Positions 12,745 through 42,019 of a stretch of 64,000 nt of DNA are shown one piece after another. The notes below the pieces were generated by a model. It was given only the letters and a program-made list of their open reading frames with translations, was not told the origin of the DNA and did not search any database. The position numbers were made by a program, and so were the translations under genes. This DNA is from an uncultured Actinomycetota bacterium (GTDB lineage: Bacteria > Actinomycetota > Actinomycetes > JACCUZ01): the NCBI GenBank assembly GCA_963829565.1, contig CAWHJC010000014.1:37601-101600 (forward strand), read 5' to 3'. How positions within the stretch are numbered: the first letter of the stretch is position 1; every line of letters begins with the position of its first letter.

Positions 12745-12816
12745 ACGCCACAGATCCTGCGTTGCACACCGGCCCGTCGGCGTGTCTGGTGCAGTGCCCA
12801 TCGGGACGCTGTCGAC

Positions 12817-35948: not shown

Positions 35949-37279
35949 GTGGACCTGTTCGAGGACGCCGCGGAGTCGCGCGGGGACGCCGGCAAGCCGC
36001 TGGCCGTCCGGATGCGCCCCCGCACGCTCGACGAGGTGGTCGGCCAGGACCACCTGCTCGTCCCCGGCTCGCCGCTGCGGCGGCTGGTGGCCGGTGAGGG
36101 CGGCGTCGCCGGACCGGCGTCGCTGATCCTCTGGGGTCCGCCCGGGACCGGGAAGACGACGCTGGCCTACCTCGTCTCGTCGGCGACCGGCCGGACGTTC
36201 ACCGAGCTGTCGGCGGTCAACGCGGGCGTGAAGGAGGTGCGGGCGGTCATCGAGACCGCTCGGCGGGAGGTCGGGATGACCGGCCGCGAGACGGTGCTGT
36301 TCATCGACGAGGTCCACCGGTTCTCCAAGACCCAGCAGGACGCGCTGCTGCCGGCGGTCGAGAACCGGTGGGTGACCCTGGTCGCAGCGACGACGGAGAA
36401 CCCGCACTTCTCGGTGGTGTCGCCGCTGCTGTCGCGGTCGCTGCTGCTGACCCTCGCGCCGCTCGACGAGGCGGGCGTGGAGGAGGTCGTACGTCGTGCC
36501 GTGACCGAAGACCGCGGGCTGGGGGGCGCGGTCGAGGTGTCGGACGAGGCGATGGCCCACCTGCTGCGGGTGGCCGGCGGCGACGCCCGCCGGGCTCTCA
36601 CCGCTCTCGAGGCGGGTGCCGGGGCGGTGCTGGGGACGGGCTCCTCGGTGCTGGACGTCTCGACGCTGGAGGCGGCCGTCGACCGCGCCGCACTGCGCTA
36701 CGACCGGGACGGCGACCAGCACTACGACGTCATCTCGGCGTTCATCAAGTCGATCCGCGGGTCGGACGTGGACGCCTCGCTGCACTACCTGGCCCGGATG
36801 GTCGAGGCGGGGGAGGACCCGCGGTTCATCGCCCGGCGGCTGGTGATCCTCGCCTCGGAGGACATCGGGCTGGCCGACCCGACAGCGCTGCTCGCGGCCG
36901 TCGCGGCGGCCGACGCAGTGGCGCTGATCGGGATGCCCGAGGCGCGCATCAACCTGGCCCAGGTGGTGATCCACCTGGCGCTGGCCCCGAAGAGCAACGC
37001 CGTGGTGGTCGCCATGGACAGCGCCCTCGGCGACGTACGGGCCGGGCTGGCCGGGGCGGTGCCGGCGCACCTGCGCGACGCGCACTACCGCGGCGCGTCC
37101 ACGATCGGGTCGGGGGAGGGCTACGTCTACCCGCACGACGAGCCGGGCGGTGTGGCCGCGCAGCAGTACCCGCCGGACGCGGTGCTGCCCCGGACCTACT
37201 ACCGGCCGACCCGGCACGGCGCCGAGTCCCGGCTGGCCGACCTCTGGGACAAGCTGCGACCCTCGTCCGCGGCACCTGA
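35949..37279 (+). CDS. rarA: Replication-associated recombination protein A (C-terminal indel; ORF reads on to 37367)
   Basis: [68 protein letters not shown]. Confidence 0.93.
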
Positions 37280-37288
37280 CCCTCCCCT

Positions 37289-38530
37289 CAAGATCCTTGT
37301 TGCGCCGACACACCGGGTCACCGGCGTGTCTGGTGCGCCGGCGCAACAACGAGACCAGCCGGGCTGATCAAGGCGAGCGGTCACCAGTGCGGGACCGGGG
37401 GCGGCAACGGCCCGGGCTCCCACGTCCAGCCGCCGCGCGGGGTGCGCTGTGCGCGGCGCCAGCCCGACAGCAGTCGCTGGCGGGTCCGCGTCCGGAACCG
37501 GCCGAGGTCGACGATTCGTCGCCCGGACGACCGTCAGGCCGCACGTCCTCGAGCCCCTCCTCGCGGGCGTTGTCGAGGGCATGCCGCAGCTCCTCGCGGT
37601 GGACAGCCCCGTCGTACTCGCCGAGCAGTCCCGTCGACGGGTCGAGGAGGTCGCCCATGCCGAGGACGCTCCCCGACGCGTCGCGGATGGTCGCGTTGAC
37701 CTGAGGATCAGGGAGCCCGCAGTCGAGCATCCAGAAGAGGCGGAAGGCCGTCTCGCGCGGTGACCGGGCCCGAGGGCTGGCTAGGGCGAGCGCACGTCGA
37801 GCCTGCGGGACACCGCGCCAGCCAGGTCGCTCGGCGAGGTAGCCGCCGACGGACTCGAGGAACTCCGGTCGGCCGCGCCCAAGGACGTCGAGTGCGGTGA
37901 CCGCCTGCAGCAGGGTCCCGTGCCGAGCCAGGTCGAATGCTGTCCGCACCGGCACCGTGAGGCGCACGCCACCGATCTCGGTGACGTCGTCGGTATGGAG
38001 CTCCGCGCGCCAACAGACCACACCCGGCCGGCGTCGGCTCCGGCCGGGCGGCAGGCACAACGGCACTGGTAGCCGTCCGCCGTCCGAGAACCCGTCGAGC
38101 TCCTCGACGCCACCGACCCGGGCGGCGGCCCAACCGCCGAGCGAGCCGTCGTCCGGCAGCAAGCCGGCTGCGTCCAGGGCCCGTTGCAGCGGGACCCTCT
38201 CGTCGGTGGCGCTCCACACGTGCACCCCTCGGAACGGACTACGCCACAGTGGTCCGGCCACCTCGCGCCAACCGATGCCGAGCAGGCTGAGCTCACCGCG
38301 GGTCAGCGGGTGGTCCAGGTCCTCCGGGTAGGTCGCCATCGGGCTGACCATGCGGCCGACCTTCCCGCCGTACGCCGGGAACGCCGACCGGCTGTGGACG
38401 ACCCCGGCCGACGGGCAAGGCTGTGGGAAACGGCGGTCGTCGGCACGGTGCGTCGCCCACCAAGGTTGCCCGTTGCGCTGACACACCGGACACGCCGGTG
38501 GACTGGTGTGTCGGCGCAACAAGGATCTTG
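37289..38530. mobile_element. Candidate cassette: 59-bp self-palindromic inverted repeats enclosing an AbiEi/DUF559-like nuclease gene
   Basis: 37289-37347 vs reverse complement of 38472-38530: 52/59 identical by manual alignment; no transposase or target-site duplication seen. Confidence 0.5.
37381..38351 (-). CDS. AbiEi-like / DUF559 (Vsr-like endonuclease) family protein (frameshift ~37545)
   Basis: LWRSPFRGVH, TVPVRTAFDLAR, ARSPRET, GLPDPQVN, DLLDPSTGLLGEYDGAVH, DNAREEGL. Confidence 0.7.
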
Positions 38531-38576
38531 GGAGGACGGGAGAGGCGGGCTGGGAGCGCGCGATAGGGTCGTCGGC

Positions 38577-39008
38577 ATGTCGCTCGGAGACGTCGCGGGA
38601 CTCATCGCGGCCATCGCGTTCGTGCTGCTGGTGGGGGCTCTCGCGGTCCCGCTGGTCAAGCTCGGCGGCGTCTTCGACGAGACCCGACGGATGATCCGCG
38701 GCGTGTCCGACGAGACGGTCCCGCTGCTCAGCGAGGTCACCACCACGGTGACCACGACCAACGCCCAGCTGGTCCGGGTGGACGCCATCACGTCCAACGT
38801 GCAGGCAGCCACGACGAACGTCTCGGCCCTCACCGCGCTGCTCGCGGCCACGCTCGGCGGTCCCGTCGTGAAGGTCGCCGCCTTCACCTACGGCGTACGC
38901 AGCGCGCTGGCCGACCGGCCGGCCTCTCGCACCCGCCGGAAGGTGGCCGACCAGACCCGCGCCAACAAGGCCGCCGCACGCGCGGCGAAGCGGCGGCGGG
39001 CCGACTGA
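38577..39008 (+). CDS. DUF948 domain membrane protein
   Basis: N-terminal TM, then coiled segment RVDAITSNV; usual position upstream of alaS. Confidence 0.8.
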   Translation: MSLGDVAGLIAAIAFVLLVGALAVPLVKLGGVFDETRRMIRGVSDETVPLLSEVTTTVTTTNAQLVRVDAITSNVQAATTNVSALTALLAATLGGPVVKVAAFTYGVRSALADRPASRTRRKVADQTRANKAAARAAKRRRAD

Positions 39009-39325: not shown

Positions 39326-42019
39326 TGGAGACCGCCGAGATCAAGCGTCGGTGGCTCCGGTTCTTCGGCGAGCGCGGGCACACCGTCGTCCCGAGCGCCT
39401 CGTTGCTGCTCGACGACCCCAACCTGCTCTTCGTCAACGCCGGCATGGTGCCGTTCAAGCCGTACCTGCTCGGGCAGGAGTCGCCGCCCTACAAGCGGGC
39501 CACCAGCGTGCAGAAGTGCGTGCGGACCCTCGACATCGAGGAGGTCGGCAAGACCACCCGGCACGGCACCTTCTTCCAGATGAACGGCAACTTCTCGTTC
39601 GGCGACTACTTCAAGGAAGGCGCCATCGAGCTGGCCTGGGAGCTGGTGACGGGGGCGCAGTCCGACGGCTTCTACGGGTTCGACCCGGACACGGTCTGGG
39701 TCACGGTGCTGGAGTCCGACGACGAGGCCTTCGAGCTCTGGCGGAAGGTCGCGGGCCTGCCTGAGCACCGCATCCAGCGCCGTGGGCTGGCCGACAACTA
39801 CTGGCACATGGGCGTCCCCGGTCCGGGCGGGCCGGCCAGCGAGATCTACATCGACCGCGGGCCGGAGCACGGCCCGGAGGGCGGGCCGATCGTGGACGAG
39901 GACCGGTTCCTGGAGATCTGGAACCTGGTCTTCATGCAGGAAGAGCTCAGCGCGGTGCGCTCGAAGGTCGACTTCGACGTCCGGGCTCCCCTGCCGACGC
40001 CGAACATCGACACCGGCATGGGCCTGGAGCGGGTGGCCTACCTGCTGCAGGGCGTCGACAACCTCTACGAGATCGACGAGGTCTTCCCGGTCCTGGACCG
40101 CGCGGCGGCGCTGGCCGGCAAGCAGTACGGCCGCAGCGGCAGCGTCCATGACCCCGATGATGTTCGCCTGCGGGTCGTGGCCGACCACGTCCGCAGCGCG
40201 CTGATGCTGATCAACGACGGTGTGACCCCGGGCAACGAGGCCCGCGGCTACGTCCTGCGGCGGCTGCTCCGGCGGGTCGTGCGCTCGATGCGGCTGCTCG
40301 GCTACGAGGACCCGGTGCTGCCCGAGCTGCTCCCGATCAGCCGGGACGCGATGGCGCCGTCCTACCCGGAGCTGGCCACCGGCTTCGGCCGGATCTCCTC
40401 CCTCGCCTATGCCGAGGAGGAGACCTTCCGCCAGACGCTGCGCGCCGGCACCACGATCCTGGACACGGCGGTCAGGGAGACGAAGGCGCAGGGCGGCGGC
40501 ACGCTGTACGCCGAGCGCGCCTTCGCGCTGCACGACACCTACGGCTTCCCGATCGACCTCACTCTCGAGATGGCGGCCGAGCAGGGACTGTCCGTCGACG
40601 AGGACGGCTTCCGTCGCCTCATGAAGGAGCAGCGGGAGCGCGCGCAGGCGGACTCCAAGGCCAAGCGGTCCGGGCACGCCGACCTGTCGGCGTACCGCGG
40701 GATCGTCGACGCGGGCGGCGCGTCGACCTTCACCGGGTACGACGAGGTCGTCACCGAGGGCCGCGTCCTCGGGCTGCTGGTCGGCGGGGCGAGCGCCCCG
40801 GCGGCCCACGAGGGCGACGACGTCGAGCTGGTTCTCGACCGCACGCCCTTCTACGCCGAGGGCGGCGGCCAGCTCGCCGACCAGGGCCGGCTGCGGCTGG
40901 GCAACGGCGCCGAGGTCGAGGTGCACGACGTCCAGACCCCGCTGCCGGGCGTCATCGTCCACCGCGGCACCGTGGCGCGCGGCGAGGTGACCGTGGACGA
41001 CACCGTTGTCGGCGAGGTCGACGTGGAGCGACGGCGCGCGATCAGCCGTGCCCACACCGCGACCCACCTGGTGCACAAGGCGTTCCGCGAGACGCTGGGG
41101 GAGACCGCGACCCAGGCCGGCTCGGAGAACGCTCCCGGTCGGTTCCGCTTCGACTTCTCGGCCACCGGCGCGGTGCCGCCGACCGTGCTGCGCGACGTCG
41201 AGCAGGAGGTCAACGAGGTGCTCGCGGCGGACCTCGACGTGCGGGCCGAGCTGATGACCCAGGAGCAGGCCCGGTCGGCCGGGGCGATGGCGCTCTTCGG
41301 CGAGAAGTACGGCGACCAGGTCCGGGTCGTCTCGGTCGGCGACTGGGCCCGCGAGCTCTGCGGCGGCACCCACGCGCTGCGCTCCGGACAGCTCGGCGTG
41401 GTGAAGATCCTCGGCGAGTCCTCGATCGGCGCGGGCGTCCGGCGGGTCGAGGCGCTGGTCGGCGTCGACGCCTTCCAGTTCCTGGCCCGCGAGCACACCC
41501 TGGTCGCCCAGCTCACGGAGGCGCTGAAGGTGCGGCCGGAGGAGCTCCCGGACCGGGTCGAGGCGATCACCGCGCGGCTGCGCGAGGCGGAGAAGGAGCT
41601 GGTGGCGCTGCGCTCCGGGCAGGTCCTGGCGGCGGCGGGCGAGCTCGCGGCCGCACCCAAGGACGTCTTCGGCGTCGGGGTGGTCGCCCACCGGGCCCCG
41701 GACGGGACGAGCGCCGACGACCTGCGGCGGCTGGTGCTCGAGGTGCGCGGACGGATCCCGGCCGACCGCCCGGCGGCGGTGGCCGGCGTCGCGGTCGCGA
41801 ACGGGCGGCCCGGTGGTGGTGGTCGCCGTCAACGAGAAGGGCCGCGAGTGGGGCATCAAGGCCGGTGAGCTCGTGCGGGTCGCCGCGACGACCCTCGGCG
41901 GCGGGGGCGGCGGCAAGGACGACGTGGCCCAGGGCGGCGGCAGCGACCCCGGCAAGGTCGACGAGGCGCTGGCCCAGGTGGAGCACACGGTGGGCCAGCG
42001 GGTCACGGGCAGCTCCTGA
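39325..42019 (+). CDS. alaS: Alanine--tRNA ligase (frameshift ~41810)
   Basis: [67 protein letters not shown]. Confidence 0.96.

Follow-up and report, generated by a model that had tools for sequence, protein, structure and literature searches.

Among described systems, the one closest to the locus studied here is the association of repetitive extragenic palindromic (REP) sequences, and of their doublets (REPINs), with REP-associated tyrosine transposases (RAYTs) in Proteobacteria. In these systems (PMC5581495, PMC3479197, PMC3733652, bioRxiv 10.1101/2021.07.10.451892), a single-copy, vertically inherited enzyme gene lies there between inverted short palindromes, the palindrome is dispersed in tens of extragenic copies, each enzyme lineage has a repeat family of its own, and orphan repeats outlast the loss of the gene. 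Here we describe a locus sharing these features, found between rarA and the DUF948 gene in a 64-kb stretch of DNA (the window) from genome G000 of an uncultured member of Actinomycetota. It comprises a nuclease gene framed by two copies of a palindromic repeat, R1. While the REP/RAYT enzyme is an HUH transposase of the Y1 type (PF01797), the present one combines an AbiEi-type winged helix-turn-helix (wHTH) with a Vsr/DUF559-type PD-(D/E)XK nuclease, and PF01797 is absent; the repeat units, of 50–80 nt, are longer than REPs, do not carry the GTAG/CGTC tag, and no REPIN doublets have been seen. The host belongs to Actinomycetota and not to Proteobacteria, and the present module is known from sequence alone.

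Both halves of the protein have characterized relatives as well. The AbiEi antitoxin of the type IV AbiE system (PDB 6Y8Q) shares the fold of residues ~1–195, and the upstream palindrome lies where AbiEi operators lie, but here there is no AbiEii partner, a nuclease is fused at the C-terminus, a second palindrome follows the stop codon, and tens more are present genome-wide. The fold of Vsr/DUF559 enzymes (I-Bth0305I, 3R3P; NGO0050, 3HRL; PvuRts1I) is shared by the C-terminal ~100 aa with their D...E-x-D...H motif, and, like I-Bth0305I, the protein pairs a Vsr-like catalytic domain with a region for DNA binding, an arrangement that reportedly suits a long pseudo-palindromic target. The gene does not reside in an intron, intein or phage, has no methyltransferase partner as Vsr does, and scores below the Pfam threshold for DUF559. 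The repeats themselves resemble TRIT hairpins, Correia elements and miniature inverted-repeat transposable elements (MITEs) in being palindromes of ~50–150 nt at gene 3′ ends with conserved stems and free loops, likely shaping transcript ends; here, however, a candidate partner gene lies between two copies, and neither a terminal inverted repeat (TIR) transposase nor a target duplication was identified. Inverted ends as in TIR transposons and MITEs are present, but there is no transposase domain and no clear duplication at one clean junction.

The arrangement of a framed AbiEi–DUF559 gene with dispersed palindromes is not described in any of the papers mentioning DUF559 that our literature search returned, nor did that search find a paper that mentions AbiEi together with DUF559. 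The finding is real, apparently unpublished, and concerns a phylum-wide module, which is not a member of the REP/RAYT systems, as the HUH enzyme is absent. With somewhat less than even confidence we interpret it as a vertically inherited, REP/RAYT-like module built around an unrelated enzyme, rather than as a hopping transposon.

Palindromes Framing the Nuclease Gene

The segment spans ~1.25 kb and contains two R1 units facing each other (-> <-). Its arms (37289–37347 and the reverse complement of 38472–38530) are identical at 52 of 59 nt, the same value as given in a preliminary description of this DNA, made from the sequence alone; a repeat finder extends the pair to 37280–37347 and 38472–38539 (68 nt, 85%). 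The left end begins at 37289, 10 nt past the rarA stop codon (37277–37279), as that description had placed it. Its statement that each end folds on itself was also reproduced: as single-stranded DNA both ends form hairpins, with –20 to –25 kcal/mol for the four strands and z from –3.0 to –5.5 against dinucleotide shuffles. It had further described an unpaired outer tail. The outer tail (CAAGATCC / GGATCTTG) is indeed present on both ends, but the inner tails are decayed copies of it (CCAAGGTTGCC in the right unit, AACGAGACCAG in the left one) and are not missing, and a pattern with tails on the outer side alone is not found in all orthologous loci. A composite rule, that only the outer tails are conserved, holds for G000, G022 and G008, fails in G013_a, G023_b and G014, and was rejected as a generalization.

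The R1 unit is 75 nt long, in the order CAAGATCC, arm (TTGTTGCGCC or ACTGTGCGTT), GACACACC, N7, CGGCGTGTCTGGTG, return arm, GGATCTTG. A profile derived from the two ends identified about 25–28 loci in the 3.94-Mb draft genome G000 (designations of the form G022 denote relatives), that is, the genome-wide search suggested in the preliminary description reveals a multi-copy, dispersed repeat. The 21-nt core is invariant in 26 aligned copies, the 7-nt loop being free. The outer 27-bp helix covaries between two subfamilies (score 0.18 vs. 0.13 in shuffles), and 72% of its cells are paired, compared to 28–42% when the helix is slid. By crude gene calls based on GC content at third codon positions (GC3), solo units are mostly intergenic and occupy short gaps, often 1–30 nt past a stop codon, and show no preference for either strand of the gene; ~18 fall into tandem, six into convergent and four into divergent contexts. 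R1 is confined to this bacterial family, with no copies in 16 genomes of other families, and Rfam has no match on the cassette region. The Y1/RAYT transposase (PF01797) is absent from G000 and from nine repeat-rich relatives, and is found in six control genomes.

The inverted repeat is far beyond chance, because R1 recurs at ~28 genomic loci and six other genera have the gene framed in the same way at the orthologous locus. The likeness to a RAYT gene between REPs, drawn in the preliminary description, holds in that inverted copies of a palindrome flank the gene. One may still ask whether generic REP- or terminator-like hairpins, mobilised by other means, have merely piled up in the gaps beside the gene. 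R1 does prefer short gaps after stop codons, the gene has such gaps on both sides, and orphan repeat populations exist. However, for ~28 units in ~3,800 gaps the chance that both gaps of a given gene are filled is of the order of 5e-5, and different paralogues in one genome are framed by different repeat types. Moreover, at 75 loci across Actinomycetota, one genome per species, we compared the 510 nt preceding the start codon with the 510 nt that follow the stop codon; the best match scored at least 20 at 36 of the 75 loci and in none of 264 control window pairs with equal spacing (Mann–Whitney U test, MWU, p 2e-18). Coincidence is therefore hardly credible.

In R1 (window positions 37309–37338, and likewise in all 26 copies) three mutually complementary segments allow for two alternative hairpins. 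GACACACC can pair with GGCGTGTC, which leaves an A.C mismatch (G.T on the opposite strand) in every copy, or, alternatively, can pair perfectly with GGTGTGTC further on. T/G-type mismatches are the classical Vsr substrate, and the presence of such a mismatch in extruded R1 may have a meaning or may be fortuitous.

A degenerate R1-like core, CACACC-N7-CGGCGTGTCTGGTGCAG, is also seen at window positions 12752–12792 (G000:C14:50352–50392; nhmmer E 0.14), where it seems to lie inside an open reading frame (ORF) of high GC3 and not in a gap.

The Encoded Protein

The ORF in the window has no significant match in Pfam or NCBIfam, and was interpreted instead through homologues, structure and PADLOC. 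We collected 116 homologues of ~319 aa, among them an intact orthologue with 96% identity (P0001); more distant homologues carry DUF559, MTES_1575, AbiEi_1 or AbiEi_4 domains (PF04480 and PF18741 included). In the AlphaFold model of P0001 (pLDDT 94, pTM 0.91), residues ~1–195 match the AbiEi antitoxin 6y8q_A over the whole target (Foldseek E 2e-4, probability 1.0), and the last ~100 aa match I-Bth0305I (3r3p_B, TM 0.61), NGO0050/DUF559 (3hrl, TM 0.55) and also PvuRts1I. A profile search against PDB yields 3hrl_A with E 8e-5, and PADLOC AbiEi models match at E 3e-7. Residues D230, E241, Y242, D243, G244 and H247, containing the D...E-x-D...H motif, are invariant in 60 homologues. Matches to Pfam AbiEi_1 are subthreshold (E 0.015–0.06), and PF04480 (DUF559) stays below its gathering score, with E 0.03 and 14.6 bits vs. 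the cut-off of 20.6 for the G022 orthologue and no match for the window ORF. No transposase domain was found in the cassette by Pfam, NCBIfam or structure search. As modelled, then, the protein is an AbiEi-type winged-helix half fused to a Vsr/DUF559-type PD-(D/E)XK nuclease half; Foldseek, the PDB profile and PADLOC all agree with the preliminary description, which had proposed this composition in place of a Y1 transposase. At E <= 1e-10 the family, which is very large and diverse, comprises 21,121 clusters at 50% identity.

When G000 is compared with G022, the ratio of nonsynonymous to synonymous substitution rates (dN/dS) of the gene is 0.25, with dS 0.092, as against dN/dS 0.08–0.19 and dS 0.09–0.116 in the neighbouring genes. 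These values argue that the gene has been functional and co-inherited with its neighbours over essentially all of the G000–G022 divergence. In the window copy, however, two 1-nt insertions (Table 1), both outside G/C runs, shift the frame from 0 to +1 and then to +2 just past the catalytic motif, so that the mechanical ORF extends to 37368. They represent either recent pseudogenisation or assembly errors. The alaS gene also changes frame near its 3′ end (41813–41868), where the C-terminal ~68 aa are encoded in a second frame overlapping the called stop; that an essential gene only 3.5 kb away is broken too favours the view that this assembly contains 1-nt errors. GC3 of the nuclease gene is 0.83, and that of its paralogue on contig C5 is 0.86, vs. 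0.93–0.96 in the neighbours.

Orthologous Cassettes at the rarA–DUF948 Site

Of 41 related genomes, 36 contain the gene family, each of them having several paralogues. Orthologues with 55–95% identity occur in six other genera (G022, G013, G008, G006, G023 and G014) in the same context, rarA – X – DUF948 – DUF6167 – alaS. All six are framed by R1 in the "+ ... –" orientation, making seven genera with the cassette at this site including G000, and the R1 core is invariant over 14 framing copies. Each genome has one R1-framed gene, and the R1-framed genes, all at this locus, group in a single clade. Over the time scale considered, the cassette thus looks resident or domesticated, as RAYTs are.

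The preliminary description had hypothesized a selfish element with a nuclease that would recognise its own hairpin ends and spread REP-like repeats. A selfish element that moves freely is not supported over this time scale, given the synteny, dS equal to that of the neighbours, purifying selection and the single clade at a single locus.

A member of the superfamily lies between rarA and DUF948 in 17 of 21 assessable family genomes. The occupants are the R1 clade (seven genomes), a clade in G019, G011 and G015 with a remnant in G017, the gene of G005, degenerate copies in G001 and G020, and genes of the classical AbiEi_4–DUF559 type in G007, G024 and G004, GGCATGCGCGACC hairpins being seen in the first two of these three. 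In G009 the site is cleanly empty, with 67 nt from the rarA stop to the DUF948 start, which provides the empty site that the preliminary description proposed to look for in relatives. G018 has no cassette but retains a right-end scar at the site, as well as 11 orphan R1 units.

The short rarA–DUF948 gap is a recurrent home of very different AbiEi–DUF559 members, each with its own hairpins.

Such a record is what an autonomous mobile or homing cassette could leave, if the gene moved together with its ends to set intergenic sites and the solo units were MITE-like derivatives or recombination footprints. At least four very different lineages (R1; G019/G011/G015; G005; AbiEi_4–DUF559) have occupied one site that is empty in G009 and scarred in G018, the C-terminal domain resembles homing endonuclease I-Bth0305I, GC3 is lower than in the neighbours, and recombination between direct arms of two palindromes would give a solo unit with both outer tails. 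The descent of the R1 clade is nevertheless vertical, with dS equal to that of the neighbours and all R1-framed genes in one clade at one locus, and each genome has a single copy per repeat type. Further, no full cassette was found at seven solo-unit sites, whose joined flanks were searched in four relatives (the one 1.2-kb filler being esterase-like), no target-site duplication was seen at one clean junction, and the outer-tail pattern is not conserved. We consider such mobility improbable as an explanation of the present cassette, while the many lineages at one site may reflect a history of homing.

The gene is always divergent from DUF948, and has the same orientation in the ten genomes where both could be located. 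This bears on yet another explanation, an invertible DNA switch in which the inverted repeats would flip the gene. It is suggested by the inverted repeats bracketing the whole gene, and by a single row in a table of PMC9881135, where "DUF559 domain-containing protein" is enriched 14-fold among predicted targets of programmed inversion. The constant orientation, the absence of a recombinase gene adjoining the cassette (as judged by the window ORFs and Pfam), and the direct, not inverted, orientation of the two framing copies in some lineages make a switch extremely unlikely.

Repeat Types Follow Gene Clades

Among the 24 family genomes, the number of R1 matches rises as the best homologue becomes more similar in identity (Spearman rho 0.77), and is 14–46 in the six genomes with R1-framed genes vs. 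0–32 in the other 18 (MWU p 6e-4), both figures being uncorrected for shared ancestry. The gene that G019 has at the rarA–DUF948 site (46% identity) is flanked by another hairpin, type C (CGAGTGGTGGGTT...AACCCACCACTCG), with the copies in direct orientation; type C is present at ~25 loci in G019 and at 16 in G017, but is almost lacking in other genomes. The only paralogue in G000 (G000:C5:157644–158666, intact, 37% identical) resides, together with its orthologues, at another conserved locus and has type B hairpins, which begin with CAAGATC(G/A)TTCG(T/C)GCC on both sides and have at most two weak relatives elsewhere in G000. Hence framing does not require spread. We inspected ten further paralogous loci from six genomes; at nine of them the gene is framed by a repeat or hairpin of a type proper to the locus, the copies being mostly 1.05–1.25 kb apart. 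In the maximum-likelihood tree the supports are 93/97 for the R1 clade, 97/99 for the type-B clade and 97/99 for the "GATCATGCA" clade. As far as can be judged from the sequences, repeat type follows the gene clade, not the genome; the question raised in the preliminary description, whether each paralogue has its own cognate repeat, is answered in the affirmative, as the types differ between paralogues and match the clades of the tree.

Outside the family, the framing palindrome of Cellulomonas is present at at least 40 loci in Cellulomonas sp. ACRRI and at least 35 in C. pakistanensis, with identity of 85–100% (many copies, 90–98%), and is absent from three genomes with other types. Cognate recognition of the palindrome by the protein is likely, because paralogues in one genome differ in their repeats, orthologues across genomes have related ones, and framing cores persist where non-coding DNA is randomised.

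Recognition alone would also be compatible with an autoregulated DNA-binding protein with another job, the palindromes being operators, the framing copies looping the DNA and silencing a potentially toxic nuclease that acts in defence or repair, and the dispersed copies being extra sites or spread by the host. The N-terminal two thirds match the structure of AbiEi, which reportedly is an autorepressor binding inverted repeats in its own promoter; the upstream copy is stereotyped at –190 to –80 from the start codon over the 75 loci; the C5 paralogue is framed by hairpins that are not dispersed; and invariant arms with free centres indicate site-by-site constraint and not recent copying. On the other hand, the downstream copy, past the stop codon, is no less regular in its placement than the upstream one, and solo units are found mostly after stops, not in promoters, according to the crude gene calls given above. 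Nor would an operator role account for the invariant catalytic residues, for the unit-sized insertion/deletion differences between close relatives, or for the tens of near-identical copies in Cellulomonas. We regard this alternative as rather unlikely.

Many of the framing units, among them those of Cellulomonas, Actinotalea, type B and R1, share the inner core GACACGCCG...CGGCGTGTC, with outer arms that differ among these distant genera.

A more far-reaching possibility, doubtful though it is, is that AbiEi–Vsr nucleases are the missing partners of actinobacterial REP-like palindromes, possibly of those of the TRIT type, and that together they constitute a second, HUH-independent class of vertically inherited "replicators" made up of a repeat and an enzyme. 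In that case the wHTH would read the fast-evolving outer arms, the Vsr half would cut the conserved core GACACGCC...GGCGTGTC, repair would copy units to new gene ends, and whole cassettes would home time and again into particular intergenic sites, of which rarA–DUF948 is an example. That core is indeed common to R1, type B, and the Cellulomonas and Actinotalea units, and the A.C / G.T mismatch is invariant in extruded R1.

Polymorphism and Possible Maintenance of Solo Units

Solo units differ between close relatives by presence or absence. G022 lacks precisely the unit at C8:62982, between flanks that are 98% identical (GACCC, 70 nt, GATCAGC). Two further units are missing in G013, namely that at C14:114024, which G006 and G008 have, and that at C3:53504, which G022, G008 and G006 have. 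In the comparison of the seven solo loci, the empty sites contain no R1 match. At one clean junction no clear target-site duplication is seen, the reading being blurred by 1-nt assembly errors. To judge from these alignments, the differences represent either insertion or precise loss of units.

At C17:209467 there is a solo R1 unit in G000, an insert of the same size as that of G022 in G013, and nothing in G008, so that the unit marks a junction of gene gain or loss. The 1.2-kb insert of G022 at this site was considered as a candidate cassette and rejected, as it contains an unrelated gene for an esterase/phytase-like secreted protein.

The condition of the repeats was compared in a pair of genomes with and without a functional gene. 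The G017 gene at the site is a pseudogene with multiple frameshifts, and the 13-nt type C arms have 14 mismatches in 416 positions there vs. 4 in 598 in G019, where the gene is intact (Fisher p 0.0025), that is, a five-fold decay. The centres vary freely in both genomes, and free centres together with retained arms argue for constraint or homogenisation of the arms rather than for recent copying alone. Comparing R1 bit scores between orphan and gene-bearing genomes was rejected as a measure of decay, since the covariance model was built from G000 and is biased.

Maintenance or spread of the repeats that depends on the enzyme is plausible but unproven, and we would put its chance clearly below even. 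It is compatible with the dispersal, the unit-sized polymorphisms, the lack of a Y1 transposase, the near-identical Cellulomonas copies and the decay in G017, and is weakened by the orphan populations of G004 and G015, by the non-dispersed C5 hairpins, and by the fact that slippage readily deletes palindromes.

Features of the Cassette and Its Neighbourhood

The features are summarized in Table 1.

Table 1. Coordinates of the framed nuclease gene and adjoining features in the window.
Feature	Positions	Strand	Comments
rarA (MgsA) stop codon	37277..37279	+	left site boundary; Pfam MgsA_C / AAA on 35949–37277
Left R1 unit	37287..37360	+	covariance model 67.6 bits; DNA fold z –3.0; outer tail CAAGATCC, arm TTGTTGCGCCGACACACC, loop GGGTCAC, core CGGCGTGTCTGGTG, return arm, decayed inner tail
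Nuclease gene	37381..38339	–	ATG at 38339; TGA at 37381–37383 matches intact orthologues; ~319 aa when intact
Two 1-nt insertions	37514..37543	–	plus-strand A at 37543 and A at 37514, relative to the intact G022 orthologue
5′ leader/promoter region of the nuclease gene	38340..38458	–	start codon to right palindrome; 94% identical to G022
Right R1 unit	38459..38532	–	inverted relative to left unit; R1 model 74.8 bits; DNA fold z –5.5
DUF948 start region	38564..38579	+	TAGGGT (–10-like), ATG 7 nt on; right site boundary

The rarA and nuclease genes converge, and the left R1 unit is situated between their stop codons. The right unit precedes the nuclease start codon by ~120 nt, and has an outer tail stopping ~30 nt before the –10-like TAGGGT of DUF948. 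The palindromes were also considered as intrinsic terminators and rejected, as they have no T-run and were not called; the sole terminator-like match is a small stem at 37353–37369. The neighbouring genes, according to Pfam, are rarA, DUF948 and DUF6167, with no adjacent gene for an AbiEii nucleotidyltransferase toxin.

The string CGCGATAGGGTCG, followed 7 nt on by the ATG of DUF948 (window positions 38560–38579), is retained in every relative, also where the site is empty (G009). It resembles the –10 element of a leaderless transcript, and the outer tail of the cassette ends where a –35 element would be.

Discussion

The reading that we tentatively favour, a vertically inherited REP/RAYT-like module with an unrelated enzyme, can be put as follows. 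A dimer of the protein would bind, via its wHTH half, the palindrome core GACACACC-N7-CGGCGTGTCTGGTG, and the two copies at its own gene would serve as operator and insulator. The nuclease half would nick or cut the palindrome, probably in the extruded form, both at its own gene and at the ~25 dispersed copies; repair and copying would then hold the arms uniform and occasionally seed a new unit at a gene end, the enzyme being the presumed cause.

Several observations weigh against this reading. With its two frame-breaking insertions, the window copy itself may be broken. The correlation of R1 counts with gene identity takes no account of shared ancestry, and R1 matches are found in G004 (32), G015 (25) and G018 (11), which have no R1-framed gene; the populations of G004 and G015 imply that units can persist or arise without a cognate gene. 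The C5 paralogue is framed, but its hairpins are barely dispersed. At C8:62982 the junction has a 4-nt microhomology, so that the unit could have been precisely deleted by slippage, with no enzyme involved. The decay of arms was compared in a single genome pair, with BLAST ascertainment. Finally, PD-(D/E)XK nucleases, to our knowledge, only hydrolyse DNA, and we know of no chemistry linking them to transposition.

The biological interest of the module would lie in its being an independent counterpart of a so far singular system. We know of no chromosomal enzyme other than that of REP/RAYT systems that lives with, and apparently maintains, a population of its own short repeats. If the reading favoured here is true, a life-style combining a repeat with an enzyme has evolved at least twice, here with an enzyme family that is large (>21,000 clusters). 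The system is directly testable, as cultured Cellulomonas strains carry intact genes together with 35–40 or more near-identical cognate palindromes, and the natural pairs of genes and repeats form a ready specificity table for a programmable wHTH-nuclease, a possible source of tools.

The module would also suggest where the hairpins dispersed at the ends of actinobacterial genes may come from; these shape mRNA 3′ ends, and their source, in the case of the TRIT hairpins of Mycobacterium tuberculosis, is unexplained (PMC3152330, PMC13714241).

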